Source: a virus
DNA: 64,000 bases
Reading direction: 5' to 3' (one strand)
Virus record (IMG/VR): IMGVR_UViG_3300008227_000004
Positions 24,487-52,118 of the stretch are shown piece by piece. Made by a program: the position numbers and the translations under genes. Position 1 is the first letter of the stretch, and every line of letters starts with the position of its first letter. Under the pieces are notes generated by a model that saw nothing but the letters and a program-made list of their open reading frames with translations, ran no database searches and was not told where the DNA came from.

Positions 24487-24750
24487 ATGGAAGCTAAGAA
24501 AATATTCATATTCATTTTTACAGCATTACTTCTGTTGTGTTGGGGTGATGTATTGTTAACAAACTACATGATACATGTACCAGTAACACCAGATTATACT
24601 GCCGCACACAACGTAGCTAAGGGGTTGTGGGGTTTTTGTTTATCATCATGGACATTCTTGTTGTATTACAACTGGAGGTACCATCGATCGTGTTGTGCAG
24701 CTTGCTTGGTTGACGAAGCCCACTCATGCGCATACGATCATGACGATTAA
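24487..24750 (+). CDS. small membrane protein
   Basis: 87 aa; RBS GGAGAG; N-terminal TM. Confidence 0.45.
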   Translation: MEAKKIFIFIFTALLLLCWGDVLLTNYMIHVPVTPDYTAAHNVAKGLWGFCLSSWTFLLYYNWRYHRSCCAACLVDEAHSCAYDHDD

Positions 24751-25033
24751 ACGTCCGTCAGCGGCTTTAATAAAATTGGCTAGCATCAAACTAGCCACAT
24801 TTGCTTGTCTTGTTATCTGGGGGTTAATACTGTGGAACGATTTACCTGACGCATTGTCGTATATTAGTATTTTGTACGGTATGGCTGTTCAATTGTGGCT
24901 TGGGTGTGTTGTTGGTATAATCTTTGGTCTATCAAAACGCACACACACAATATGCTCTCACACTGAATGTGTATTACACCCTGTATACAGGTCACGGAAA
25001 CAAAATGAAGAAACAGATAAAAACCCTCAATGA
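24695..25033 (+). CDS. membrane protein
   Basis: 112 aa; two TM segments. Confidence 0.45.
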   Translation: MQLAWLTKPTHAHTIMTIKRPSAALIKLASIKLATFACLVIWGLILWNDLPDALSYISILYGMAVQLWLGCVVGIIFGLSKRTHTICSHTECVLHPVYRSRKQNEETDKNPQ

Positions 25034-25190
25034 CATCGCTCGGTTGCGATATGACGTAGTACGACTGTATGATTTACCGGAATTCAATGGTAGCTTAAAA
25101 GCATATGTGACAACACAATTAGACAGTATGATTGCTGGACAAACCAGTCCGACAGACTTTATCGAGATGTATCAACGTATTAATAGTTGA
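25005..25190 (+). CDS. hypothetical protein (start moved to internal ATG to limit overlap)
   Basis: in frame with track ORF 24924-25190. Confidence 0.35.
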   Translation: MKKQIKTLNDIARLRYDVVRLYDLPEFNGSLKAYVTTQLDSMIAGQTSPTDFIEMYQRINS

Positions 25191-25222
25191 TAATTGGATC
25201 GCAATAGGGTATCATTTACGCA

Positions 25223-25750
25223 TTGATAACTAACTGGATAAAGCACATGACTTATATACCAACCACATTGCCCGATAATATTTCTGCACAAATTGACATT
25301 CCAGATGATTTTGTAACGGATATGTTGGAACTGATCAAAGATACGGTGATAATCGAGACAGGCGATCACTTTTCCTTGTCACCGCTGTTGAGTGGTGGTA
25401 TGTGTGATGACTCAAAAACCAAAGACAAAGATACCATCATTATTAGTCACGAATTCTTGGCCAATTTGTTAATTAAAAAATATCCAATCGAGTTGATGAT
25501 TTACTATCAACAAAATAAGGATAATTCACTTAATGTTGACCTAATTTATGTGCTGGTAAAACTTCTCCATGATGATCCCGCCTTCCTGGCAGCACGTAAC
25601 AAAGAGTTACTCCCAACATCTGATTTGTTGGAAGATATGATTACATTTGATGAGCAGATACTCAAGATCCCACCAAATATGTACAATGACATCGCAAGTT
25701 ACAAAACTACCATGGATATAATTGCCTCTCTTTCGCAGAATGACCGTTAG
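25223..25750 (+). CDS. hypothetical protein
   Basis: 175 aa. Confidence 0.5.
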   Translation: MITNWIKHMTYIPTTLPDNISAQIDIPDDFVTDMLELIKDTVIIETGDHFSLSPLLSGGMCDDSKTKDKDTIIISHEFLANLLIKKYPIELMIYYQQNKDNSLNVDLIYVLVKLLHDDPAFLAARNKELLPTSDLLEDMITFDEQILKIPPNMYNDIASYKTTMDIIASLSQNDR

Positions 25751-25757
25751 TAAGCGT

Positions 25758-25786
25758 TTGATTCTTGGTGTATAAGACAATATAAT
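25758..25786 (+). promoter_or_regulatory. sigma70-like early promoter (TTGATT, 17 nt, TATAAT)
   Basis: consensus -10, 30 nt upstream of the endolysin start. Confidence 0.55.
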
Positions 25787-25816
25787 TAAACAACGATATT
25801 ACATCGAGGTGAATAC

Positions 25817-26620
25817 ATGAATATAGAAACAATACAAACAGTACAAACTGGTATGAATAAGCATTGCGCTCAGAACTTGATCGTTGATGGTGATGCTGGT
25901 GCAAAAACAATGGCAGCATTGGATCACGTTCCACAAATCCCATTACCTTGGAAGGATCAACGCAAAATCGTGTGTTTCATCCAGTTGTATGCTTTTATTG
26001 AAGGATTCAATGGAGGACCAATAGATGGATACATGGGACCACAAACATTATACGCATTGGATCAACTAAAGTATTTAATCAAACATGATAAACCAGAACA
26101 AATTTGGCGTGATGGTGATGTTAATGTTCCAGCACCTGGTATTATATCGGATATTCCTTTACAAAATTACAAAGACCTAGTAAAATATTACGGAGAAGTG
26201 GGTACAAATCAAGTAAAAGTTGATTTGCCACATGCTGTACGTCTGGCTTGGGATACTGACACAAAAATCAACAGATTTACTTGTCACGAAAAGGTTGCTG
26301 ATAGTATCGTTCGTGTGTTAGATCGAGTTCTGGATCATTACGGATCCGAACAATACATCGATTTGGGTATGGATCTTTGGGCTGGATGTTTGAATGTTCG
26401 TAAGATGCGTGGTGGTAACAACTACTCCATGCACTCTTGGGGTATTGCTATCGATTGGGATAGTGCCAGAAATCAGTTAAAGTGGGGAAGTCAACGTGCC
26501 AATTTTGCAAATCCAATGTACGACGAGTGGTGGAAAATCTGGGAAGATGAACAATGGACATCTCTTGGACGTGCCACGAATCGTGACTACATGCATGTAC
26601 AACGAGCTAGATTAAAATGA
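25817..26620 (+). CDS. endolysin: two peptidoglycan-binding repeats plus M15-type zinc peptidase
   Basis: 267 aa; N-terminal LIVDGDAGAKTMAAL and GPQTLYALDQL PG_binding_1-like repeats; C-terminal SMHSWGIAIDWD...DYMHVQ matches VanY/M15 SxHxxGxAxD...D..H. Confidence 0.65.
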   Translation: MNIETIQTVQTGMNKHCAQNLIVDGDAGAKTMAALDHVPQIPLPWKDQRKIVCFIQLYAFIEGFNGGPIDGYMGPQTLYALDQLKYLIKHDKPEQIWRDGDVNVPAPGIISDIPLQNYKDLVKYYGEVGTNQVKVDLPHAVRLAWDTDTKINRFTCHEKVADSIVRVLDRVLDHYGSEQYIDLGMDLWAGCLNVRKMRGGNNYSMHSWGIAIDWDSARNQLKWGSQRANFANPMYDEWWKIWEDEQWTSLGRATNRDYMHVQRARLK

Positions 26621-27782: not shown

Positions 27783-28134
27783 ATACCAGGATGAAAGTGC
27801 ACGAGGTAGTTCCTGAACCAACTAAAGCAGAAGTTCTCAAACGAATGAGAGCCATGATAAAACGTAAAGCTAAAAACCCAGCAGATCCCGAGTTGAGTGC
27901 TGGATGGAATCAAAGTCCGCATCAAGGTAGTACACCTGGTGCATTTTTGAATAGGTGACATATGAAAGTTGAAGAATTGGTATCATCAAAAGAATACAAA
28001 ACCACGAAAATTAATATTCACACAAGAAAGCGAAAAAGAAAAAGAAACATAAAGGGGGATACCGATCCCCATTTTTCTAACATAGACACCCACTACGGAA
28101 TGACTGGAGCTGGACGGGGAGCTGTTATACAGTC

Positions 28135-29210
28135 CTAAAAGTGGTATACTACTGACACTGCTCCGTAATGCCACAAATCGGCAAATTCTGGGTTGGATGC
28201 TGTTTTGTAATCAATCCAGATACTTCCCTTAGCCACGTGATATTCTGTTTTAACTTCCCATTGGTCGCGGTGTATCGTAATTCCAACACTAGCATCGTTT
28301 GACATGATTGTGTGTGGTGTACGCATTGCAGCTATAGCATCATCCTTAAAGATGGCTTCGTATCTGTTATAATTTGCGTGGACAGATATCAAATCCGACA
28401 CATCATACTGAGCAGTAGCAGAAATACCGTATGATGTATTCAAGTACTTCATCACCGCCATCCCTTCTAGTGATAATGTTACATCACCAAAACGTTTTTC
28501 ACCACCCAGTGATACAATATAATTTTTACCTGCTGCTCCATGCCCCCAATCTTGTAGCGTTATCGCCGTAACAACCCTCCAGTCGTCTCTGATGTAATCA
28601 ATGTTAATCAATTGATGACCACCAAATTTTGTTTCTACTTCTATCGGACGTCCAGAAAACCAAATAACAGACTCTTCTTTCTTATCAACCACGATTGGTG
28701 TGGTGATTGTGTATTTAAACGACCAATTTTCATATGATGTTCCAACTGCTACACCCCAACCGCTTGTCAACGCATATCGCAATTGATCCCAGTACATTGC
28801 TTGTGGAGCAACATTTCCTGGTCGTGTTCGTGGGTTTAAACGGTCTTTGTTGTATAATCCGTAGTGATGTCGTAACTTACCAGCTGTTAGCTCTATTGGA
28901 ACGACATCAGCTATCACGCTGTCGTACTCTACAAATGCATATGCAACTGATTGCTCCATGTGCTCAGTATCCAATCTGAATTGGGTAAAAGCCATCCACT
29001 CAGATGATATGTCGTAATTGATCAACAGTCCAACTTCCGGACTGCTTTCAACCGGTTCCGGTTCGGGTGATCCGTATACAAATTGATATCCAACATATCC
29101 GGATACATCAAAGTGTTTGTCTATGTAACTTCTAGTGTCGTGATCGTGTGCATGTGTAGCAAACGGAACAAAACTAATCAGCAGTAATAATAGTAATTTC
29201 CGAATCATCA
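28135..29210 (-). CDS. predicted outer-membrane beta-barrel protein with signal peptide (start at internal ATGATG; track ORF extends to 29241)
   Basis: signal peptide MMIRKLLLLLLISFVPFATHA; alternating amphipathic beta-strand pattern; C-terminal aromatic terminus ...VSVVYHF typical of OMP barrels. Confidence 0.5.
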
Positions 29211-29602
29211 TTCCATACCATGTAGTCGCCCACATACCCAATTGAATTTGGTGTGGATTTAATTATAATCATCATTTGCTCATCGGAAATGATAGTTTTT
29301 ACGCTTGATGAAATACCAGAGAACGTATTTTGTTGTAATAACTTTTTGTATCGGTAGTTTGATAGGTTTAACCACTGCAAAACAAAAAGTTTGTGCTCGA
29401 TTGAGTTTATTGGACGGATAAACACCGTTATCTTTGCACCTGTTGATACCCATTTTGTTGTTTTTCGGGTAAATATGTTTGTCAATTTAAACGTCTGCGT
29501 TGCTGTTAGTTTTTCAGCAGGCGGAGCAGTGTGTATTACCGTTTCGGCATGCGCGTGTCGAAGCGATGCTACCAGTAGTAGCATTATTAGTATACGAGTC
29601 AC
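29174..29602 (-). CDS. secreted/periplasmic hypothetical protein (GTG start)
   Basis: 142 aa; signal peptide MTRILIMLLLVASLRHAHA; AAGAGA RBS-like sequence upstream. Confidence 0.45.
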   Translation of the reverse strand: MTRILIMLLLVASLRHAHAETVIHTAPPAEKLTATQTFKLTNIFTRKTTKWVSTGAKITVFIRPINSIEHKLFVLQWLNLSNYRYKKLLQQNTFSGISSSVKTIISDEQMMIIIKSTPNSIGYVGDYMVWNDDSEITIITAD

Positions 29603-29607
29603 GTTGT

Positions 29608-29907
29608 TTATCTCTTGTTGGTTGAGTATATGTGTGTAACGGTACGCTCCATATCCGATAACTGCTCTTGTAGCTCAGCATCGGTAGTTTTTATATGTGC
29701 GATCGATTGTTTTATTGTTGTTAGATCTTTTTGCAACTCTTCGATCTTTACCGAGTTGAATTTCTCACTATATTCTTGCTGTATTTGTACTTGAGTTAGC
29801 TCTCCGTTTAGATTCACCCATGCGGTAATAACGCTACCTATCATAGCTAACGCAGGCAAGATATCCCATACAGTTTTTTGATTGCGTCTATCGTGATTAT
29901 CAGCCAT
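29608..29907 (-). CDS. membrane-anchored coiled-coil protein (i-spanin-like topology)
   Basis: 99 aa; strong RBS GAGGAAGGA 7 nt upstream; N-terminal TM then coiled coil. Confidence 0.55.
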   Translation of the reverse strand: MADNHDRRNQKTVWDILPALAMIGSVITAWVNLNGELTQVQIQQEYSEKFNSVKIEELQKDLTTIKQSIAHIKTTDAELQEQLSDMERTVTHIYSTNKR

Positions 29908-30012
29908 GAATTTCCTTCCTCATTCCGTGTAAATGATAACATCATTGTTATCGTGCTTGTCCTGGTATTTATGGTGGTGAATCCTAAATACGTTTTTATC
30001 AGGAGTATAGCA

Positions 30013-30639
30013 ATGGAACAAATTACACACAAAGAATTAGCACGAGCAGCTGCACGTAGCTACGACGCATACACTTTCTCGACAAACGAGTGTGAAGTGT
30101 TAGTGGAACTAAAGAAAGACCAGCAAGTTATAGCAATACGAGGAACAGAAGGAGGCCAATTAATCTCCGGTTTGGGATTTATGGATGTTATACGCGACAT
30201 GCGCTTTATTCCTTGGTACCATCCAGTGTTAGGTTGGGCACATTCTGGTTTTCTCAAAGGCGCTGTACGGATCACTGAAGACTTGAAGTCTCACATATAC
30301 AAAGACAAGCCTGTAGTGCTAACTGGACATTCACTTGGAGCGGCACTAGCACTTATCGTAGGAATGTTATTAAAACATGATGGATATGAGGTTGTTGAAT
30401 ATGTTGGATTTGCTTGTCCTCGTACCTTCGTGTACAATAAACAACGACACAATGAAGATACATCAGTACGATTTCCCATAACAATATACCGTTACGAGGA
30501 TGACATCGTACCAATGGTACCGTTTGCATTTCCTTTCTATTACCACCACCCAGTGGAGTTATCGCAACTTGGTAATGGTGATGGTACTCCATCAATATCA
30601 GACCACAGCATGACCAATTACGAAAATGCTGTGAGTTAA
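30013..30639 (+). CDS. class 3 lipase / alpha-beta hydrolase (start moved to ATG with AGGAG RBS; track ORF begins 29878)
   Basis: Lipase_3 signature VIAIRGTEG...PVVLTGHSLGAALALIVG (GHSLG nucleophile elbow). Confidence 0.65.
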   Translation: MEQITHKELARAAARSYDAYTFSTNECEVLVELKKDQQVIAIRGTEGGQLISGLGFMDVIRDMRFIPWYHPVLGWAHSGFLKGAVRITEDLKSHIYKDKPVVLTGHSLGAALALIVGMLLKHDGYEVVEYVGFACPRTFVYNKQRHNEDTSVRFPITIYRYEDDIVPMVPFAFPFYYHHPVELSQLGNGDGTPSISDHSMTNYENAVS

Positions 30640-31061
30640 GTAATCACACGACCAGCAAAATCAGTATCAGTTGCACTACTAAATGTTATAGTAAACGTAT
30701 TAGTAGTCGTAGCTGTTATACTACTAGACTGAGCAATAGCTACAGCATCAGCTTGCATGATTGCATATCCCAACGTCGAATTGCCCAAGTTGTGTGTTAT
30801 CGTGTATACTCCTGCACTATCACGTACAACAGACCAACCGCCTGGTAATACTGTACCAACACCTGCTCCAGTCACCTCTATGTAATGTGTACCTGGTGCA
30901 GAAATGCTAGACTCCCATTTCGCGTTTGTGTTATTCCACACCAATGCTTCACCATCTGCAGGTCCGGGGGCACTTACATCTTTGATGTCGTTTAAATCTA
31001 TCTTACCTTTCAAGCTCTCTGTTAAGTCAACTTGATAATCGGCTATTGTTGGTTGAGTCAT
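30636..31061 (-). CDS. hypothetical protein (Gly/Thr-rich, fiber-like)
   Basis: 141-aa minus-strand ORF ending just before the 31106 promoter. Confidence 0.4.
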   Translation of the reverse strand: MTQPTIADYQVDLTESLKGKIDLNDIKDVSAPGPADGEALVWNNTNAKWESSISAPGTHYIEVTGAGVGTVLPGGWSVVRDSAGVYTITHNLGNSTLGYAIMQADAVAIAQSSSITATTTNTFTITFSSATDTDFAGRVIT

Positions 31062-31105: not shown

Positions 31106-31134
31106 TTGACAACAACAACACTTTAACCTATAAT
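31106..31134 (+). promoter_or_regulatory. sigma70-like early promoter (TTGACA, 17 nt, TATAAT)
   Basis: perfect consensus hexamers, 30 nt upstream of the ligase start. Confidence 0.6.
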
Positions 31135-31163: not shown

Positions 31164-33140
31164 ATGAGTTTTATCACAGATGCAGCAAAATCCACAACCG
31201 AATTAATTGATACACTGATCGAAGAGCATTCAACCCAGGAATTAATTGATATTCTAATGACTGCCGACGATGAATATGCCAACAGTACTGATGGTGATTT
31301 AACACTAACAGACACACAATACGACATCCTACGCCGCAAATTGCAACTCTCCGTTCCTCACCACGTATATTTTACTGGGGTTGGAAGTGCTGTCCGTGGT
31401 GGTAAAGTAAAACTGCCACATAAAATGGGCAGTCTAAACCAAATATTCGAGAATGATGTAGAAGCTTGGGTTTCTGATAACCGATTAACAACATCACGAT
31501 TTGTTATAACCGACAAACTTGACGGTGTTAGTGCGATGGTAATCTATCCTGGTAACGATGAACCGTTTCAAATTGGTTATAGTCGTGGGGATGGTACGGA
31601 AGGTGCGGATATTTCTCGTCACCTATCAAAAATTGTACCAAAATCAATACCACACCCAACATCGTTGGCTATTCGTGGTGAAATCATTCTAACAAAAGAA
31701 GGGTTTGATGTCCTGAAAACTAAAGTGTTTACTCGTCAGGGCTTAGAATACAAAAACGCTCGCAATATGGTTGCAGGGTTGATGAATTCAAAAACAAATC
31801 CGGATATCGTGTATTCATTTCTCAAATTCGTATCATACCAAATCGTTGGTGTTACTCTTAGTAAAACAGCAATGCTGTATACTCTAATGGAGTACGGCTT
31901 TAAAGTTCCCGTTCTGGCAACGCGGATGGGTAGGGATCTGAATGATCCAGACTTAATTGCATACCTAACAGAACGAAAAGAGAAAGCTGAATATGAAATC
32001 GATGGTATTGTTGTTGATGTTGATGACGAATTAGAGCGTGTGAGACTCAGTCCAAATGCTGCTGCCCTCAATCCATCATATTCATTTAAGTACAAAACGA
32101 CAGATGCTGATAATTACGCAGAAACGGAAGTTACTTGGATTGAACTGAGATTATCCAAACACGGATTCATAAAACCACGATTTCACGTTAAACCTGTTAA
32201 TCTGGTCGGTGTTACTATCGTTCATGCTACAGCCCTAAACGCCAAATACTTACTAGAAAACAAAATCAGACCAGGCACAAAAGTGGCAATCTCTCGTATG
32301 GGGGATGTGGTTCCTAATGTAACAAAGATTTTGGGACAGACCGACGAAATGTCTGATGACGAATACAACTTGTGGTTCAATGATCAAATGGATCAGTTCG
32401 GCGTTTGGACCTGGTCTACCACAGACAAAGGGGACGGTGTGGATGCAAAGGTAGTCGACATTAGCAACCATTCCATCATATTAATCAAGCAGTTATATGA
32501 TTTCTTTGATAAACTAGATATTGCGTTTCTTGGTATGGGCAATGTAACGAAATTAGTTGATAGCAAAATTGACACACCCGAATCGATACTAACAATGACC
32601 GAAGCTGAATTGGTTGGTGTGCTGGGTGAGAATGGGAAAAAAGTATTCAAAAGCATTCACGAAAAGTTAAATGGTATTACACTACACAAGCTAGTAGGTG
32701 CACACTCAAATCAACGTGGAATTGGTATACGAAAGATGCGTAAGGTTGAGCTAGCAGTTGGTGGTAACTTTACCACCAACCAATCAATATCATCGATCAA
32801 ATCGTTGGATGGCTTTGATACCATCACCGCTACGGGCGCCATGGCCGCTATAAACGCATTCAATGACTTTTTCCCCATCGTTAAGCATCTGGTAACACTT
32901 GAAAGTGCAACACCAACCGATGCTAAATTAGCTGGGATGAAAATATGCTTCACCGGCTTTCGTGATAAACCACTTCAAGCTGCTGTGGAGTCGAAAGGTG
33001 GTACAGTACAGAGTGGTGTTAGCAAAACCACCGATCTCGTTGTGACCGTTGATGTGAACGGTGCGAGTGGTAAACTAAAGAAAGCCAGAGATCTAAGCAA
33101 AAAGATCATTACAGTTGAAGACTTCATGCAGTTGTTATAA
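31164..33140 (+). CDS. ligA: NAD+-dependent DNA ligase (LigA-like) with C-terminal BRCT domain
   Basis: 658 aa; adenylation motif TDKLDGVS; OB-fold and HhH-like regions; C-terminal BRCT-like KICFTGFRDKPLQAAVESKGGTVQSGVSKTTDLVV. Confidence 0.8.
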   Translation: MSFITDAAKSTTELIDTLIEEHSTQELIDILMTADDEYANSTDGDLTLTDTQYDILRRKLQLSVPHHVYFTGVGSAVRGGKVKLPHKMGSLNQIFENDVEAWVSDNRLTTSRFVITDKLDGVSAMVIYPGNDEPFQIGYSRGDGTEGADISRHLSKIVPKSIPHPTSLAIRGEIILTKEGFDVLKTKVFTRQGLEYKNARNMVAGLMNSKTNPDIVYSFLKFVSYQIVGVTLSKTAMLYTLMEYGFKVPVLATRMGRDLNDPDLIAYLTERKEKAEYEIDGIVVDVDDELERVRLSPNAAALNPSYSFKYKTTDADNYAETEVTWIELRLSKHGFIKPRFHVKPVNLVGVTIVHATALNAKYLLENKIRPGTKVAISRMGDVVPNVTKILGQTDEMSDDEYNLWFNDQMDQFGVWTWSTTDKGDGVDAKVVDISNHSIILIKQLYDFFDKLDIAFLGMGNVTKLVDSKIDTPESILTMTEAELVGVLGENGKKVFKSIHEKLNGITLHKLVGAHSNQRGIGIRKMRKVELAVGGNFTTNQSISSIKSLDGFDTITATGAMAAINAFNDFFPIVKHLVTLESATPTDAKLAGMKICFTGFRDKPLQAAVESKGGTVQSGVSKTTDLVVTVDVNGASGKLKKARDLSKKIITVEDFMQLL

Positions 33141-47109: not shown

Positions 47110-47186
47110 GGGGTTGTAGCTCAGCTGGAACGAGCATCTGCCTTGCAAGTAGAGGGTCGGGGGTTCGAATCCCCCCAGCTCCACCA
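47110..47186 (+). tRNA. tRNA-Ala (anticodon UGC)
   Basis: cloverleaf: acceptor GGGGTTG/CAGCTCC, D-arm GCTCAGCTGGAACGAGC, anticodon loop CTTGCAA, T-arm GGGGGTTCGAATCCCCC, CCA encoded. Confidence 0.8.
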
Positions 47187-47622
47187 ATAAGAACAACATG
47201 CACGAGGATGGGTTGATGATGTGTAACACGCGGTCAACTTAAAGGAGCCTAGATCGTAGCCTAAGCTACTACGAACATTCCCACCGCAACCTTGTGCGGA
47301 AGATAGACGCAACCTTTTATAGTAAGGATTATAAGGCAGGTTAGTACGCCTGTGGCATCGCAAGTACTCGAGTGAAGTCTGAAAGGTGTTTTACCGTGCC
47401 AAACACTCGTTAATCAAAGTCGGAAACGGTTTTCACTATATACGGATATATGAAAAAGAAAATACGGATAATTTCAAAAATAAACAAGCAACACAGACGA
47501 GTAATCGAACATGGTGTTGCGGAATGTGGTTCCATAATCGTTATGAAAAAGGAACCTTTAAGCTCACTACATCCTAACCTACATTTTGATAATGACGGTT
47601 GGTATATGTGGTGTGATAATAA

Positions 47623-47695
47623 GCCTTAGTAGCTCCAATGGTAGAGCTCTAATTTCGTAATTTAGATGTTGCTGGTTCGACTCCAGTCTAAGGCT
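47623..47695 (+). tRNA. tRNA (anticodon CGU, Thr by rule)
   Basis: acceptor GCCTTAG/CTAAGGC perfect; D-arm GCTCCAATGGTAGAGC; T-arm GCTGGTTCGACTCCAGT; anticodon loop TTCGTAA. Confidence 0.65.
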
Positions 47696-47699
47696 CACA

Positions 47700-48158
47700 A
47701 TGGATTTGTATTTGTGGGTGATGGTTCGACTCGTAAATATGGGCATGAAAAAATGTACTAAGTGTGATAGTGATAAACCGTTAACTGAATTCTACAAAGC
47801 TGTTAGAATGAAGGATGGGTACCAATCTAGTTGTAAATCGTGTGCTGATGTAAGCACCAAAGGATCCAGGGCTAAAAACCCAAAGAAATATCACAACATG
47901 CGATATTCGTATGCAAAACAACGCCAGGCATACATAACGTCGTTGAAGATGCAATCAGGGTGTGTGTGTTGTGGTGAAGATGAATTGTGTTGCTTAGATT
48001 TCCACCACTTAGATCCGACACAAAAAAAATTCAACATTAGCAGCGCTGCCACGAAATGTGGATGGGGGGTGTTACTGGAAGAAATACAAAAGTGTGTTAT
48101 CGTGTGTGCTAATTGCCACAGAAAGATACACAACAATTTAATAACAATAAGCTCTTGA
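47700..48158 (+). CDS. HNH endonuclease embedded in the tRNA cluster
   Basis: 152 aa; zinc-finger CTKCDS...CKSC and HNH core CVCCGEDELCCLDFHHLDP...CANCHRKIH; its stop overlaps the next tRNA 5-prime end. Confidence 0.65.
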   Translation: MDLYLWVMVRLVNMGMKKCTKCDSDKPLTEFYKAVRMKDGYQSSCKSCADVSTKGSRAKNPKKYHNMRYSYAKQRQAYITSLKMQSGCVCCGEDELCCLDFHHLDPTQKKFNISSAATKCGWGVLLEEIQKCVIVCANCHRKIHNNLITISS

Positions 48159-48227
48159 AGCATTTATCTGGATGATGTCAACTCTTGTAAAGTTGGGAAT
48201 ACGGTTCGATTCCGTACTGGAGCTCCA
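48151..48227 (+). tRNA. tRNA (anticodon UGU, Thr by rule) with atypical D-arm
   Basis: acceptor GCTCTTG/CTGGAGC (one mismatch); anticodon arm CAACT-CTTGTAA-AGTTG perfect; T-arm TACGGTTCGATTCCGTA; CCA encoded. Confidence 0.5.
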
Positions 48228-48242
48228 CAATAAGGAAGTAAC

Positions 48243-48476
48243 ATGACTTTTAGTATTAAAGATATTGTAAAAAATAATGTAGCTAACATGCTATACTATA
48301 GACACCAAGTAGTGTATTATAGTGTATTGGTTCCAGGTGAAAACATTGAGTATTCATTTCCGGTTCCATTGGATGATGTACAGGATGCTACCCTTCACCA
48401 CGAAGAGAAGGCAATACTGTTGATGAGATACATCCGCAAAGCTGTTAAAGATGGCACGTTCGTAAAGGTAATATAA
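48243..48476 (+). CDS. hypothetical protein
   Basis: 77 aa; RBS AAGGAAG upstream. Confidence 0.5.
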   Translation: MTFSIKDIVKNNVANMLYYRHQVVYYSVLVPGENIEYSFPVPLDDVQDATLHHEEKAILLMRYIRKAVKDGTFVKVI

Positions 48477-48670
48477 TGAAAGACAAACGGTCGATTGAAC
48501 TAACTGGAACAGATATTGTGTTGGAGCTATCAAAAGCAACTGCGGTAAAAACACAAAAGAACATGATACATTTGGATGAACTTGATGATGGAACCTGGAG
48601 ATTGATTTATAATGGTAACTTAATCCCTGATTTTTCCCAAATCTCAGCACTAACAATGGTGCGACAATAA
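48476..48670 (+). CDS. hypothetical protein
   Basis: 64 aa; overlapping start. Confidence 0.4.
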   Translation: MKDKRSIELTGTDIVLELSKATAVKTQKNMIHLDELDDGTWRLIYNGNLIPDFSQISALTMVRQ

Positions 48671-48903
48671 TGTATATGACATATGGTGTGATAACTAGAG
48701 GTGGGTATAGTGGTGGTGAGTGGAGCGAGACTTCACGCACCATCAACATACAAGCTAAAACTAGAAAGAAATTGCAAGCAAAGAAAGATGAAGCTACAAA
48801 AACGCACACGAGTGCTGGCAGTCCAATCGACTTTGGGTATGTATCAGGGACATCAGAAATCGAGTGGTCATCACAACTGTGGAAGTTAGTTTCTTCCACC
48901 TAA
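48670..48903 (+). CDS. hypothetical protein
   Basis: 77 aa; overlapping start. Confidence 0.4.
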   Translation: MYMTYGVITRGGYSGGEWSETSRTINIQAKTRKKLQAKKDEATKTHTSAGSPIDFGYVSGTSEIEWSSQLWKLVSST

Positions 48904-48914
48904 TTTTAATAATA

Positions 48915-48986
48915 GCGGATTAACTCAATTGGTAGAGTGCTCACCTGATAAGTGGGAAGTTTTGGGTTCGAATCCCAAATCTGCTA
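48915..48986 (+). tRNA. tRNA-Ile (anticodon GAU)
   Basis: acceptor GCGGATT/AATCTGC; D-arm CTCAATTGGTAGAG; anticodon arm CTCAC-CTGATAA-GTGGG; T-arm TTGGGTTCGAATCCCAA. Confidence 0.75.
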
Positions 48987-49004
48987 CAAACAAAAAGGAT
49001 AATA

Positions 49005-49451
49005 ATGATAGGTACATTAACAATTTCGCAAGCTGTAATAGGATTCCTAGGATTCCTGGGTATCAACAATTTCAAAGAACTTACCAACGCCATATATGGA
49101 TTGGTTGGGATGAAAAGGGATGGTGTTGAGATAATCCAGACGGATAACGATGTTGAGATTCGTAAGAATGGCAAGCTGATTATCAAGTTTGATGTTGACT
49201 CCATAGAAGAAATGTTTGATAATACGTTACCAGTTCCGGACTTCTCATACAACTCGTATGAGGCGTTTATTGTTAACCAATGGGATGTGTTGGACCCGAA
49301 GCCAACCATTATAAAATTGTGGCGTGAAGATGCTGCCATTTTGATTAAAATAAAATATCCAGGTACTGGACAAGAAGCAACAACGAAAATAGAACACGGT
49401 GACTTAGCTGAACAACGATTAACAATCTTAGCTGAACTACATCGAGAATAG
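49005..49451 (+). CDS. hypothetical protein
   Basis: 148 aa; follows tRNA-Ile. Confidence 0.5.
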   Translation: MIGTLTISQAVIGFLGFLGINNFKELTNAIYGLVGMKRDGVEIIQTDNDVEIRKNGKLIIKFDVDSIEEMFDNTLPVPDFSYNSYEAFIVNQWDVLDPKPTIIKLWREDAAILIKIKYPGTGQEATTKIEHGDLAEQRLTILAELHRE

Positions 49452-49456
49452 ATTAT

Positions 49457-49531
49457 TCCCACTGGGCCGCAAGGTGTGGCACCTCCCTGTTAAGGAGATT
49501 TAGCGAGGTTCGATTCCTCGAGTGGGAGCCA
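49457..49531 (+). tRNA. tRNA-Asn (anticodon GUU)
   Basis: acceptor TCCCACT/AGTGGGA perfect; anticodon loop CTGTTAA; T-arm CGAGGTTCGATTCCTCG; CCA encoded. Confidence 0.65.
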
Positions 49532-49546
49532 AATAAGGAAAAAGCA

Positions 49547-49759
49547 ATGGATACATTAGGGGAATTAGCGAAGATCATGGGCATCGAGAATCAAACCAGA
49601 TACTGTATAACATACGGTGAAGGTGATAACAAATGTAGCTGTGAATTTTCTGCAAGAATGTCAAATTCGGAAGAAGAATTAGCTGACCTGCTTGAGGAAT
49701 TTGTCTCTCATTTACGAGCTGACAAAACCGAAGTGACAACGAAGGATGGGATATTCTGA
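49547..49759 (+). CDS. hypothetical acidic protein
   Basis: 70 aa; RBS AAGGAAAAAG. Confidence 0.45.
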   Translation: MDTLGELAKIMGIENQTRYCITYGEGDNKCSCEFSARMSNSEEELADLLEEFVSHLRADKTEVTTKDGIF

Positions 49760-49869
49760 ATGTGTGCAATGCTGGACTTGGATGAGTGGCTTGACGAGAT
49801 GAAGCCAACCGATAGAGAACGCAATGTAAAAAGATTTAAAGATTTATATGTAGCACAATTTCAACAACT

Positions 49870-49937
49870 GGGGGTGTATACGGTTAGACTGGATGGTTTG
49901 CAACCAACCGGGCGGAGTTCAACTCTCCGTACCTCCA
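49870..49937 (+). ncRNA. tRNA-like element with truncated D-arm (possible tRNA or pseudo-tRNA)
   Basis: acceptor GGGGGTG/TACCTCC with G-U pairs; canonical T-arm CGGAGTTCAACTCTCCG; anticodon-like arm GATGG-TTTGCAA-CCAAC; only 12 nt for the D-region; lies inside ORF 49760-49960. Confidence 0.3.
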
Positions 49938-49956
49938 CAAAAAACAACGAGGATGC

Positions 49957-50313
49957 ATGATGTCTGATAGAAAACCTGGAATAGGCAACTTTTTTAAGTG
50001 GCCGGTATTTGAGCTGGATCCGAATGATAGCAACACCACGGTGTTCACAGTATCTAAAGATCGTGACAAAGAACCAGGAACAATCTCCGGATTTGATATG
50101 TCACCATCAGATACGCTACTGATTAATGATTGGTTAGCAGATCACAACAAAACATGCAAATTTTACGATGACGGGAGCACAGCTTCTAATCCTTGTGGTG
50201 CAATAGGTGGTAGACTAACGTACAGCTTCACTCCAACGGGGTTGGGTACTGTAGTTGTGGTTATGTGTGCTTGTGGTGCTAAACTTGATTTAACAGACGT
50301 GGATAATTGGTAA
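49957..50313 (+). CDS. hypothetical protein
   Basis: 118 aa; ATGATG overlap upstream. Confidence 0.5.
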   Translation: MMSDRKPGIGNFFKWPVFELDPNDSNTTVFTVSKDRDKEPGTISGFDMSPSDTLLINDWLADHNKTCKFYDDGSTASNPCGAIGGRLTYSFTPTGLGTVVVVMCACGAKLDLTDVDNW

Positions 50314-50588
50314 TGTTTATAGTAGAGAGTGAGATTGATAGATCCGAACAACACAATCCTGTTTTACGGGTTGTTGTCTTTCAAACCGCCGACGATCAGC
50401 AACAATTCGATACGAGGACATATAGCATGTCTCTTCGATCGGTAGATGCAGATATGCACCAATGGTGCGAACAAGTGATGGTTGCAAATGTTACAGATAT
50501 TGTCACCCAAGTAGAACAGGGTACTAAAGCTAACATCAAAAAAATGATTGCCAAGACATTTAACTTTCTTGGCCTAGACTTTTCATAA
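50307..50588 (+). CDS. hypothetical protein
   Basis: 93 aa. Confidence 0.45.
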   Translation: MVMFIVESEIDRSEQHNPVLRVVVFQTADDQQQFDTRTYSMSLRSVDADMHQWCEQVMVANVTDIVTQVEQGTKANIKKMIAKTFNFLGLDFS

Positions 50589-50771
50589 ATAACTAAATGA
50601 AACATATACAATTTATAGTGTGGTTTTCTGATTCATCATATGACCCCCAAAAGGTTGAAGTTTGGGCGTTAACCAAAGAGCAAGCAGTCATATTGGCACA
50701 AGCTGAGCGAATCAAAGCTGGTGACGATTATACATTGCATAGTATTAGTTTTTGAGAGTTTTAAGGGCAAC

Positions 50772-50963
50772 ATGGCCAGAGATTTTGGGGTTACAAACAA
50801 GAAGTACAAAAAAGCGTTATCAGATATGCGTGATATCGAATTGACAACAGAACATCTGGAATCAGTAAAATTGTTGTTAGCGGCCGAGGATGCAAGAGCT
50901 GCATTAGCGATAAAAAATCAACAAGTCAGTGAAGGAGATCTTCACCGACGGTTTAATTTATAG
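50772..50963 (+). CDS. hypothetical protein (internal ATG of track ORF 50721)
   Basis: 63 aa. Confidence 0.4.
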   Translation: MARDFGVTNKKYKKALSDMRDIELTTEHLESVKLLLAAEDARAALAIKNQQVSEGDLHRRFNL

Positions 50964-51420
50964 GTACTTTTGGTGGTAATAAATGGAAGCGATATATCAT
51001 TGCAGTGAATGCTCATTTCGATGGAGACAAAAACCTGATATGGTTGTGTGTCCAAAATGTAAACACAAATACGTAAAGTGGATAAATTTTAGCGACTGTG
51101 AAAAAAACAAATTTAGATAGATCAGCAGAACGTGTCAGCAACTATGCGCAGCTTGACACCTACCGGACATTGGGGGTTCGACTCCTCCCTGTTGAGCAAA
51201 ATAACAATTTTGTGTTATTCCCATCCCGTACCCAACACCTGACACTATCGGGAACCATACATGCTACGGCATATGGGGGAACAACATAAGAATGGTGACG
51301 AATCCACATCTGTGCACGGAGGTGGAGGAAAGATAAGAATGGTAGTCACACCTCCCCTCCCGACACAAGCCACAAAGTGGCACTATCGGGAACCATCCGT
51401 GTTACGACACGAGGGAACAA

Positions 51421-51496
51421 TGGATCGCTAGCTCAATCGGCAGAGCATTCGACTTTTAATCGAAGGGTACTGGGTTCAAATCCCAGGCGGTCCACC
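51421..51496 (+). tRNA. tRNA-Lys (anticodon UUU)
   Basis: acceptor GGATCGC/GCGGTCC; D-arm GCTCAATCGGCAGAGC; anticodon arm TTCGA-CTTTTAA-TCGAA perfect; T-arm CTGGGTTCAAATCCCAG; CCA encoded. Confidence 0.8.
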
Positions 51497-51676
51497 AATT
51501 AATTTTAACTATTTTGAAGGTAAAAAAATGACAGCTTTTGTCGCTATTGTAACATTAATTGTAGTTTGGGTATTAACGTGGTTTTTAAATAAACGATACG
51601 ATGATGACCCAATAAAAGATTTCTTGCGTTATATTGGAGCCACCTTTGCATCAATGGCTATTGTATTCTTCTGGCA

Positions 51677-52045
51677 TTGGATGTGATAAGCAACAGAAAC
51701 ATCGCTGAATATGATCAGTTGTGTAAGTGGAGATCTGCTTGGTACGCTGCGTTGAACCGACCAGTTGCAGATTCACAGAACAACCAAGATAAGATAATTC
51801 GTCGTATTCACATCGCAAATATGAAAATCAGCGGTATGTTACAACGATGCAACGATGTAACCACTGATGATACTTATTACCATCCAAGAGATGATAACGA
51901 TCAGCGGTGGATTATAATATTCGAAGACGCAGATGTTGGTAATCAAATATACTTCGATGAACAGGAAGCTATCGCTGCATATGAGCGGTTAGAATGTAAC
52001 TGGAATTGTCATTTATTTCAATCCGTACAACGCAACACAAAATAG
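51677..52045 (+). CDS. hypothetical protein
   Basis: 122-aa ORF ending at the next tRNA. Confidence 0.45.
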   Translation: MDVISNRNIAEYDQLCKWRSAWYAALNRPVADSQNNQDKIIRRIHIANMKISGMLQRCNDVTTDDTYYHPRDDNDQRWIIIFEDADVGNQIYFDEQEAIAAYERLECNWNCHLFQSVQRNTK

Positions 52046-52118
52046 TCCCGAGTCCGAATGGCGAGGAACCTCTTTTACACAGAGGCCGTATACGGTTCGA
52101 TTCCGTACGGGACTACCA
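52044..52118 (+). tRNA. tRNA-Val (anticodon UAC)
   Basis: acceptor AGTCCCG/CGGGACT perfect; anticodon arm CCTCT-TTTACAC-AGAGG perfect; T-arm TACGGTTCGATTCCGTA perfect; CCA encoded. Confidence 0.7.

Follow-up and report, generated by a model that had tools for sequence, protein, structure and literature searches.

What is the function of three envelope-protein genes that stand on the minus strand of a jumbo-phage region read almost entirely from the plus strand? The question arises from a 64-kb stretch of viral DNA (IMG/VR record IMGVR_UViG_3300008227_000004; hereafter the window), which represents part of a 278-kb phage genome. Three tightly packed genes, designated A (29907-29608), B (29602-29174), and C (29211-28135), are located on the minus strand of this plus-strand jumbo-phage region. 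An earlier note based on the letters of the DNA had described these genes as an envelope islet that breaks the strand polarity, next to a plus-strand lipase gene and followed by a further minus-strand ORF (30636-31061). All five ORFs are present at these coordinates, and among the longer ORFs of the window (at least 110 aa) nearly all are on the plus strand, which bears out the polarity break.

The boundaries and spacing of the three genes point to a single transcription unit. Gene A (99 aa) is preceded by the ribosome-binding site GGAAGGAAA. Gene B (142 aa) starts at GTG 29602, 5 bases past the stop of A, which yields MTRILIMLLLVASLRHAHA before the cleavage site and ETV after it, and its basic N-terminal region is retained in homologues. 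Gene C (357-358 aa) starts inside the end of B, most likely at ATG 29211 or 29208, giving MMIRKLLLLLLISFVPFATHA ahead of HDHD; TTG 29241 is not favoured, and a JGI gene call whose protein is identical to C comprises 357 aa. With an overlap of ~38 nt between B and C and a gap of only 5 nt between A and B, the three genes form one operon. A bidirectional terminator-like hairpin (GGGGATACCGATCCCC; 28055-28070, both strands), with T-tracts on each strand, is located 65 nt past the stop of C and forms the 3' end of both the A-B-C operon and the converging plus-strand genes. Five terminator-like sites were seen in the region versus 1.9 +/- 1.2 expected. On the other side, A and the lipase gene diverge from an intergenic region (29908-30012) that presumably contains the promoters of both the operon and the lipase gene. 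No strong sigma-70 match was found on the minus strand of this region, and its palindrome (GATAACA-N4-TGTTATC, 29935-29952) is not kept in the related loci L001, L004, and L008. An Rfam scan of the operon surroundings and eight related loci found no element, such as a c-di-GMP riboswitch. Moreover, the GC content, GC3, and codon adaptation of the five genes match the genome average (CAI 0.70-0.74 vs 0.73 +/- 0.03). Thus, the comparison with the flanks that had been suggested as a way to detect recent acquisition gave no sign of it. No second copy of A, B, or C could be detected in the 64-kb window.

Two neighbouring genes lie outside this unit. The plus-strand gene at 30013-30639 starts at ATG 30013 with AGGAG upstream (TTG 29878 is not used) and encodes a cytoplasmic class 3 lipase/esterase of 208 aa containing GHSLG, as previously proposed; Pfam Lipase_3 (PF01764) is matched at 51.7 bits versus a cut-off of 22. 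Its GHSLG is aligned to the catalytic Ser motif of fungal class 3 lipases (1dt3 and 6a0w), and the Asp in YEDDIVP aligns with N/RDIVP of the fungal enzymes. Judged from the sequence, the catalytic His is probably that of the C-terminal DHSMTNY, outside the aligned stretch. The view that such an enzyme is rare in phages did not hold: PHROG 21992 ('esterase/lipase') is matched with an E-value of 1e-23, and homologues occur in 15 phage records (XacN1 and P-SSM2 among them). Nor does the gene belong to the unit, since it stands beside the trio only in the close relatives L001 and L008, is separated from it in L004, and is absent beside it in L006 and L010-L017. The second neighbour, a minus-strand ORF of 141 aa (30636-31061) that converges on the lipase gene, is kept at the same position in L001 and L008. 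It shows weak matches to PHROG 9627 and 13853 (both of unknown function) and none in PDB or in isolated phages.

The largest protein of the trio, C, is a 16-stranded porin of ~337 mature residues, nearest to OprP and general porins. It has a signal peptide cleaved between ATHA and HD, contains no Cys, and ends in the C-terminal beta-signal VVYHF (in full VSVVYHF), in agreement with the former description of a beta-barrel outer-membrane protein. OprP is the top structural match, and inward-folding long loops are present. One of these, between strands 5 and 6 (residues ~111-149), is basic and reads GKLRHxYGLYNKDRLNPRTRPGNxAPQAxYWD; nowhere are the phage and bacterial porins better conserved than in the corresponding motif, G(K/R)x(K/R)...YN..R..P.TR....PQ..Y, and the net charge of the loop is +4 to +7 in 16/16 phage-type members. 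A crude alternation estimate placed 5 K/R versus 13 D/E at lumen-facing strand positions. Scans of Pfam, NCBIfam, and PHROG with C returned no match, and neither did a profile search against PDB sequences. At the gathering score Porin_O_P (PF07396) is not matched by C, and bacterial relatives reach it only below threshold (16.1 vs 20.9 bits; 7/35 members, best E-value 1.3e-4). On the other hand, a word-indexed search found 17 homologues of C and an exhaustive search 622, while 69 homologues of B were identified, so that neither gene is a chance ORF. Among large uncultured phages, the porin family comprises at least 36 clusters at 50% identity.

B was previously noted only as a secreted protein, and its signal-peptidase I type signal (cleaved between AHA and ET; no Cys) agrees with that. 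What had been missed is that B is a periplasmic single-lobe PstS-like domain (PBP_like_2), i.e., half of a PstS-type binding protein. The fold belongs to the phosphate class of type II periplasmic binding proteins, with the fold and motifs of the second PstS lobe (IF..k...W..G..I.V and ..SIGY). The mature protein has ~120 residues and one lobe, compared with ~250-320 residues for PstS, and the two ligand-closing lobes of PF12849 proteins are not present. At the sequence level, B of the window scores 19.4 bits against PF12849 (below the cut-off of 27), 9/11 of its relatives match the family, and the copy in bacterial locus L020 exceeds the cut-off (30.2 bits). A profile search of B against PDB sequences yielded only marginal PstS matches, and the cluster annotation of B-like proteins is solely 'ABC-type phosphate transport system substrate-binding protein'. 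In the HMMER alignment to 4ecf, the S-G-T anion-binding turn of PstS is matched by S-I-E(-H), i.e., the turn is lost and replaced by S-I-E-H, and S67, E69, and H70 are nearly invariant across the B family.

With regard to A, its sequence agrees with the proposed membrane-anchored coiled-coil protein: a cytoplasmic tail (MADNHDRRNQK) is followed by one membrane helix (residues ~13-32), after which a coiled coil of ~65 aa extends into the periplasm and closes with the conserved motif LE(R/E)(T/S)V..(L/I)Y. The tail has only ~12-15 residues in this phage, and distant members have a longer one with 1-2 WDGx(D/E)RR repeats. Family matches of A (AbiTi, E-value 4e-4; PHROG Rz-like, E-value 0.022) were rejected as assignments, being coiled-coil noise.

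The three genes are conserved as a unit among phages. Searching related phages, as had been recommended, identified the A-B-C trio in at least 13 phage or viral contigs whose neighbouring genes are otherwise unrelated, and the expected conservation of the islet was thus confirmed for the trio. The gene order and the overlapping or abutting arrangement are kept in L001, L004, L006, L008, and L010-L017, with variable flanks such as ribonucleotide reductase, ClpX-like genes, and tail-fibre-like genes. Synteny is maintained down to 45% identity, which, together with the fully phage-adapted codon usage, indicates a long maintenance of the module. The trio is missing from the nearest isolated jumbo phages (e.g., XacN1, CM1, Phosso, and Atu_ph07) and was found in 0/50,697 records of isolated phages. 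Against the same 50,697 records, DNA searches with the region in near and distant modes and tblastn searches with C, B, and the 141-aa ORF gave no match. A PADLOC scan of A, B, and C also resulted in no family assignment. The A, B, and C families have no member in any curated family or in any cultured phage.

A further line of evidence comes from bacteria. Patterns derived from the phages retrieved no loci from bacterial genomes; a tight bacterial alignment retrieved 590, of which 80 were sampled. The phage C profile matches the porins of all 80 loci and the B profile the upstream ORF in 77, and in these 77/80 loci the B-like and C-like genes are adjacent, co-oriented, and overlapping. An hhalign comparison of C with locus L020 gave 97.6%. 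Thus, B and C are phage copies of an uncharacterised bacterial gene pair, which the earlier note had not recognised; in bacteria, the pair shares one operon with a periplasm-sensing c-di-GMP enzyme. Carriers include Nitrosomonas, Nitrosospira, Nitrospira, Halomonas, Sulfuriferula, and others. Downstream of the pair, a same-strand GGDEF-EAL protein of at least 800 aa is encoded in 54/77 loci (with a dCache_3-PAS-GGDEF-EAL architecture in the three cases tested), and a TIGR03694 acyltransferase, related to autoinducer synthases, is located directly upstream in 45/67 assessable loci. Locus L020 contains B-C without the GGDEF-EAL enzyme. No paper on such a half-PstS/porin/GGDEF-EAL operon could be found in the literature, and since the operon itself is uncharacterised, a 'sensory input' role of bacterial B-C is suggested by the gene neighbourhood only. 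The bacterial B-like and C-like genes are genuinely homologous to those of the phages and likewise overlap in the same order, whereas the phages lack the acyltransferase and the c-di-GMP enzyme and have gained A upstream of B. Neither a downstream dCache_3-PAS-GGDEF-EAL gene nor an upstream TIGR03694 gene accompanies the trio in any phage locus, and the 64-kb window contains no GGDEF motif or TIGR03694-like gene. Homologues of A were found upstream of B-C in 13 phage loci and in none of the 80 bacterial loci, and A is thus a phage-specific gene. Moreover, the phage-type B and C group together in a clade that stands clearly apart from the bacterial proteins (E-value gap 1e-44 to 1e-28), and the loop motif differs between phage (RxNPxTRxG) and bacterial (TRDxxFTRP) porins.

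The analysis establishes what folds the proteins have, how their operon is built, that the three genes are conserved together, and that B-C come from bacteria, with the gene context described above. Our favoured reading, to which we incline only tentatively, is that A-B-C constitutes a three-tier accessory envelope module of large phages for solute admission and periplasmic recognition. C would form a diffusion channel of 16 strands, probably as a trimer, in the outer membrane of the host, with a pore shaped by the strongly conserved basic L3-type loop. B, whose synthesis would be coupled to that of C by the gene overlap, would enter the periplasm as a lone PstS-type lobe, and A would be anchored in the inner membrane with its short coiled coil extended into the periplasm. 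A small solute could then be let through the outer membrane by C and recognised in the periplasm by B. In the phage version, A may take the place of the host enzyme as the inner-membrane partner of B, so that the phage would dictate how infected cells sense or import a small solute from outside. Alternatively, the module might feed into, or block, the host's own c-di-GMP sensor. That the three proteins interact, in which direction the relay runs, and what kind of ligand is involved are inferences. Several observations count against this reading: a tail of ~12-15 residues in A offers very little for signal output, a single B lobe is unable to enclose a ligand as PstS does, and the bacterial locus L020 has the B-C pair without the enzyme.

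Several other explanations were considered. Nutrient uptake is possible but unlikely: C would let anions or phosphate pass in the manner of OprP and B would carry phosphate like PstS, supplying more phosphate for the replication of a 278-kb genome. The basic L3-type loop of C would suit such a role, and there are precedents in cyanophage PstS (7xg8) and in viral contigs carrying glnK-amtB-ompL (PMC8115048); Porin O/P-like proteins also occur among predicted viral proteins. However, B has one lobe and a nearly invariant Glu where the anion-binding turn should be, no arginine ladder is apparent on the lumen-facing strands of C by the crude estimate given above, and C falls below Porin_O_P. Furthermore, the bacterial homologues are found beside a GGDEF-EAL enzyme rather than pstCAB, and Pho-box-like sites upstream of bacterial B genes were detected in 5/72 loci versus 3 in controls, a weak test based on the E. 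coli consensus. A would also be left unexplained.

The same bacterial context could be taken to suggest a c-di-GMP decoy or hijack, a scenario that we regard as unlikely. B with C would dock on the host dCache_3-GGDEF-EAL sensor, or A would intercalate, and host c-di-GMP, hence biofilm formation and motility, would be locked in a phage-favouring state. Such a sensor is indeed the partner of the bacterial B and C homologues, and both the phage specificity of A and the lack of a GGDEF motif in the window (64 kb of the 278-kb genome) are consistent with a decoy. Nevertheless, the wide separation of the phage and bacterial clades and their different loop motifs speak against a close imitation of any host protein existing today.

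The interpretation as a surface-remodelling moron, in which the porin and its helpers replace or mask host receptors and exclude superinfecting phages, seems quite unlikely, even though the cassette is accessory, stands on the opposite strand, is separately transcribed with its own terminator, and is sporadically distributed (absent from the four isolated jumbo phages named above), and phage-borne porins are already known. It leaves unexplained both the strict co-inheritance of B and A with C and the position of the B-C pair beside a bacterial signalling enzyme. The suggested Lom/Bor-like identity of C, and likewise an Ail-type one, has to be abandoned, since the barrel has 16 strands instead of 8, there is no lipobox, and no family match was obtained; similarity to the OmpC family is also lacking.

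A more specific proposal, which we consider rather improbable, is that the trio acts as an envelope-spanning sensing relay by which a jumbo phage eavesdrops on a population signal or the c-di-GMP state of its host. C would admit an extracellular signal, perhaps the product of a TIGR03694-type acyltransferase such as is found with the bacterial homologues, B would recognise it, and A would pass the information inward via its arginine-rich WDGx(D/E)RR / RRxxxR tail. This tail may bind c-di-GMP or a phage regulator because its motif is spaced like the c-di-GMP switch of PilZ. The receptor would thus be composed of captured host parts and the phage's own component.

Finally, a non-canonical lysis device, in which an i-spanin-like A would be joined through its coiled coil and B to C and break the outer membrane late in infection, is very improbable. 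In its favour, A and its 12 homologues have the i-spanin layout of an N-terminal membrane helix and a periplasmic coiled coil, an M15 endolysin gene (25817-26620) and a small two-helix membrane protein lie 1.5-3.4 kb away, and the window has no lipobox ORF (canonical o-spanin). However, the signal-peptidase I sites of B and C are of the A-x-A type, neither protein has a lipobox or any Cys, the PHROG spanin match of A is insignificant (E-value 0.022), the trios of L006 and L010-L017 are away from lysis genes (only in the closest lineage does an endolysin lie within ~1.5 kb), the B-C homologues belong to non-lytic bacterial operons, a ~65-residue helix (~10 nm) plus a 4-nm domain would probably be short for spanning the periplasm, and the module is accessory, yet every such phage needs outer-membrane disruption. 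Of the formerly proposed spanin pair plus porin, only the porin stands; the missing lipobox and Cys, the insignificant match, and the inconsistent link to lysis genes speak against the pair.

The trio is of interest in several respects. An outer-membrane protein gene in a phage is commonly taken for a lone 'moron', and here a porin is strictly co-inherited with periplasmic and inner-membrane partners. Moreover, the trio points to an unstudied operon, widespread in nitrifiers, other Proteobacteria, and Nitrospirota, in which a porin and half of a binding protein are coupled to a c-di-GMP enzyme and to an acyltransferase resembling autoinducer synthases. Either system, once understood, may provide new clues to how signals or solutes are handed over from the outer membrane to an inner-membrane sensor, and also to what a lytic jumbo phage gains from placing its own version in the host envelope.

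Comparison with known systems places the trio among several partial relatives. With OprP/OprO of Pseudomonas (PDB 2o4v; PF07396), C shares the 16-stranded barrel at 12% identity; however, by the crude estimate given above, the arginine ladder is not evident on its wall, which seems acidic, with the basic residues concentrated in the loop, and no Pho-regulon signal (E. coli consensus) was found upstream of the bacterial homologues. B shares the second-lobe fold and motifs with PstS (PF12849; cyanophage P-SSM2 7xg8) and differs in having neither the other lobe nor S-G-T and no linkage to pstCAB. A resembles the i-spanin of lambda Rz/Rz1 in topology, but it is shorter, with one helix, without a lipoprotein partner or Cys, and without a significant family match. 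Phage-borne porins include the lambdoid Lc (phage PA-2) and NmpC (prophage DLP12), which are believed to replace or mask host surface receptors and to exclude superinfecting phages. Viral contigs also carry ompL, together with glnK and amtB (PMC8115048), the only precedent found in the literature on phage porins with partners, and BFVD contains porin-like entries. Like C, all of these are full-size outer-membrane diffusion channels carried as accessory phage genes; on the other hand, they are single OmpC/OmpL-family genes, and none has been described with a half binding protein and a coiled-coil partner.

The closest parallels in logic are found among bacterial signalling systems. In YfiBNR, LuxP-LuxQ, and NspS-MbaA, an envelope or periplasmic binding protein controls an inner-membrane sensor, often a GGDEF/EAL enzyme, and the outer-membrane or periplasmic part is a Pal-like lipoprotein or a full two-lobed binding protein. 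A relationship to these systems at the sequence level is not to be expected. We know of no phage version of this type of signalling, and the relay proposed for the trio would share its logic of control.

The islet at 28135-29907 consists of three minus-strand genes packed head to tail. Gene A (29907-29608), preceded by the ribosome-binding site GGAAGGAAA, encodes a membrane coiled-coil protein of 99 aa; B (29602-29174, 142 aa), a one-lobed, half-PstS periplasmic protein, starts at a GTG five bases past the A stop; and C (29211 or 29208 to 28135, 357-358 aa), a 16-stranded porin, starts within the 3' end of B. The operon is closed by a hairpin at 28055-28070 that has T-tracts on either strand. 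Since this bidirectional terminator lies inside a 58-aa plus-strand ORF with a Lys/Arg-rich product (27962-28138), that ORF is doubtful as a gene. About 28 nt 5' of the A start codon there is an operator-like, perfect 7-bp inverted repeat (GATAACA-N4-TGTTATC, 29935-29952), which is not kept in three related loci (L001, L004 and L008). Both B and C carry signals of the signal-peptidase I type (MTRILIMLLLVASLRHAHA followed by ETV, and MMIRKLLLLLLISFVPFATHA followed by HDHD, respectively), no cysteine occurs in the whole sequence of either protein, and C ends in VSVVYHF. In GC, GC3 and codon adaptation, the three genes and two neighbors, a class 3 lipase gene and a 141-aa ORF, all fall within the range of the other window genes; the islet is thus an old resident of the phage genome rather than the recent acquisition considered in the earlier note.

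Coding in the window is nearly all on the plus strand. The NAD-dependent DNA ligase (31164-33140) shares 34-39% identity with ligases of the jumbo phages Phosso, XacN1, CM1 and Atu_ph07, a 277,870-bp JGI contig encodes a protein identical to porin C, and no DNA match to the window was found among 50,697 deposited phage genomes; the source is thus an uncultured jumbo phage. Seven tRNA genes (Ala, Thr x2, Ile, Asn, Lys, Val), with small ORFs in between, form a cluster at 47110-52118. Directly 5' of the ligase gene, a sigma-70 consensus promoter (12/12, TTGACA-17-TATAAT, 31106-31134) suggests transcription by the host polymerase. A possible lysis region (24695-26620) contains an ORF of 112 aa (24695-25033) whose product has two hydrophobic helices, followed by two small ORFs and an endolysin gene (25817-26620; 267 aa, PG_binding and Peptidase_M15_4 domains). 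Within the 64-kb window of the 278-kb genome, no lipobox ORF (canonical o-spanin) was detected. The plus-strand gene at 30013-30639 encodes a 208-aa class 3 lipase or esterase that lacks a signal peptide. Its recognition by the GHSLG motif is borne out by Pfam (51.7 bits), PHROG 21992 (E 1e-23) and alignment to fungal class 3 lipases, which covers GHSLG and the Asp of DDIVP, with a candidate His in DHSMTNY. Such a gene, called rare in phages in the earlier note, is of a known kind: lipase-annotated homologues occur in 15 phage records, among them those of cyanophage P-SSM2 and of the related jumbo phages XacN1, Xoo-sp13 and CM1. It is part of the backbone common to these phages and not of the envelope module. 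The 141-aa ORF (30636-31061, minus strand) is kept in close relatives and gave no informative match in family, PDB and isolated-phage searches.

A search of related phages, as proposed in the earlier note, recovered the A, B, C order in all loci of sufficient length (L001, L004, L006, L008, L010-L015 from IMG/VR, L016 on a 450-kb contig, and L017/L018), down to 28-32% identity; the genes there overlap or lie a few bases apart. Close relatives (45-71% identity) retain the window neighborhood of metallophosphatase, lipase and ligase, whereas distant ones (28-32%) have quite other neighbors, including ribonucleotide reductase, glutaredoxin, a ClpX-like ATPase, a fibre-like protein of 1680 aa and secreted proteins that are fimbria-like. 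Neither the 141-aa ORF nor the lipase gene is carried along with the trio. Such co-inheritance despite great divergence and rearrangement provides strong evidence that the A, B and C proteins work together. An exhaustive search yielded 36 porin cluster representatives at E < 1e-30 and the B search 69 clusters; neither B nor C was found in isolated phages, and the search with phage C returned no homologues outside metagenomic and viral contigs.

Several other genes lie near the trio in these relatives. In a 45%-identity relative (L004:3814-7225 and L005:332-3743), four extra co-oriented genes separate the trio from the lipase side, encoding a DUF4376 protein (180 aa) and then proteins of 107, 339 and 492 aa, which may be fibre-like; a CAP-domain gene adjoins its lipase gene. 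On a 102-kb viral contig, three genes just 5' of the trio (L010:5062-6442, minus strand) encode small secreted proteins whose N-termini are fimbria/SCPU-like; they represent a second set of envelope/surface genes in a phage. In several distant trio phages, a conserved small minus-strand gene (95-126 aa, motif TPKQIAQTYVxNDIIVHExIL; L010:9107-9394, L011:9122-9502, L012:9050-9343) faces the 3' end of the porin gene in convergent orientation. Close to the islet, relatives also have genes for a release-factor-like protein that is truncated (PCRF/RF-1, 190 aa) and for aspartate decarboxylase (PanD) (L001:14005-14577, L001:10532-10894, L004:11560-11898, L008:6664-7026).

In protein A, the N-terminus is short and basic (DRRNQK); a single hydrophobic helix follows, and then approximately 65 residues with only weak coiled-coil-type matches. 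Its homologues in other phages are longer (100-161 aa), the added length being a cytoplasmic tail in which a WDGx(D/E)RR repeat occurs once or twice and in many cases reads RRxxxR (L010:7098-7574, L011:7095-7538, L012:7077-7478, L013:7153-7623, L014:7049-7477, L015:6997-7470, L016:6513-6971, L017:6507-6989). These tails match no known family, and the spacing of RRxxxR is that of the PilZ c-di-GMP switch motif; only DRRNQK is left of the tail motif in A of the window. The periplasmic part of the homologues ends in a conserved LE(R/E)(T/S)V..(L/M)Y, after which come basic residues. In the C family, the best-conserved stretch is a loop, GKLRHxYGLYNKDRLNPRTRPGNxAPQAxYWD (pLDDT about 60), with a net charge of +4 to +7 in all 16 members. 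The barrel wall is acidic by a rough estimate (5 K/R versus 13 D/E on strands, with a crude inside/outside assignment). On the same crude assignment, the wall is unlike the arginine ladder of OprP, and its charge segregation resembles that of general porins but with reversed polarity.

Relatives of B and C also occur in bacteria. One B homologue lies on a bacterial contig (L020) between miaA-hfq and mutL. The gene after it overlaps it and encodes a protein of 399 aa that can be aligned to the phage porin profile (hhalign 97.6%, E 4e-12), contains the same loop motif and weakly matches Porin_O_P. This pair (L020:7001-8546) has no GGDEF-EAL gene alongside, so a B-C pair can exist without the enzyme; its deposited B gene call is too short, since an in-frame signal peptide lies upstream. 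An exhaustive porin profile search gave 622 matches, the more distant of which (about 400 aa, motif GR.KNP.G.YNETRDV.FTRPS..LPQSIY) have no curated family. Scanning one genome per bacterial species for the motif revealed at least 590 loci, and 80 were kept for analysis (Nitrosomonas, Nitrosospira, Nitrosovibrio, Nitrospira, Ca. Nitrotoga, Halomonas, Sulfuriferula, Methylococcaceae and others). The phage profile matches all 80 porins, and a B-like ORF lies directly 5' on the same strand in 77. In 54 of these 77 loci, the product of the next same-strand gene is 800 aa or longer and has both GGDEF and EAL motifs (dCache_3-(PAS)-GGDEF-EAL in three examples). A TIGR03694 'PEP-CTERM/exosortase system-associated acyltransferase' (269 bits versus a cut-off of 112, with a weak Autoind_synth match) is encoded immediately 5' in 45 of 67 assessable loci and anywhere in the locus in 65/77. 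No A-like gene was present in the 80 loci. The complete operon of acyltransferase, half-PstS, porin and dCache_3-PAS-GGDEF-EAL enzyme (e.g., L046:4584-10109, L099:5444-10062, L087:5397-9959) is widespread in nitrifiers, Halomonas, Sulfuriferula, methanotrophs and others and apparently uncharacterized; literature searches found no publication on it, and neither its half-PstS nor its porin gene has a Pfam or NCBIfam model.

This genomic context suggests that the bacterial porin and half binding protein would form the outer part of a sensory chain ending at a periplasm-sensing c-di-GMP enzyme. The B/C gene overlap in phages and bacteria points to matched synthesis and probably a complex. As the phage version lacks the enzyme and has A added in front, we tentatively favor, as a plausible reading, a device that would admit a solute and recognize it in the periplasm, in which A would be the phage's own partner in the inner membrane. 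The folds, the operon, the co-inheritance of its genes and the bacterial context are observed, whereas physical contacts between the three proteins, a ligand, possibly anionic or phosphorylated, and an output are what we infer for the device. Two close variants of this reading appear unlikely: a decoy that targets the host's own sensor, and plain nutrient uptake. For phosphate uptake, it is striking that the best structural matches of both B and C come from the phosphate system. However, B is a single lobe that has lost the S-G-T turn, C falls outside PF07396 and shows no arginine ladder in the rough wall estimate, Pho boxes 5' of the bacterial homologues are not enriched (5/72 versus 3 in controls), and the genomic partner is a c-di-GMP enzyme, not pstCAB. 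A phage-owned, envelope-spanning sensing relay, in which the RRxxxR tail would be linked to c-di-GMP, seems rather improbable. That A-B-C might serve lysis, as the spanin-like pair of the earlier note implied, is very improbable: A has the topology of an i-spanin and the M15 endolysin lies 1.5 kb from the trio, but a lipoprotein partner and Cys are absent, family matches are all insignificant, the link to lysis genes is not conserved in other lineages, bacterial B and C homologues are non-lytic, and the module is accessory, being absent from the nearest isolated jumbo phages.

Phage-borne porins such as Lc and NmpC are already known, and porin-like entries are present in BFVD. A viral ompL beside amtB has also been described (PMC8115048). 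What appears to be new is the co-inheritance of a porin with two partners (a PstS-like protein of a single lobe and a coiled-coil protein of the inner membrane), the absence of a curated family for all three, and the descent of the trio from a c-di-GMP-linked operon of bacteria that is itself unstudied. In its logic, the proposed sensory chain would be analogous to the LuxP-LuxQ, NspS-MbaA and YfiBNR systems.
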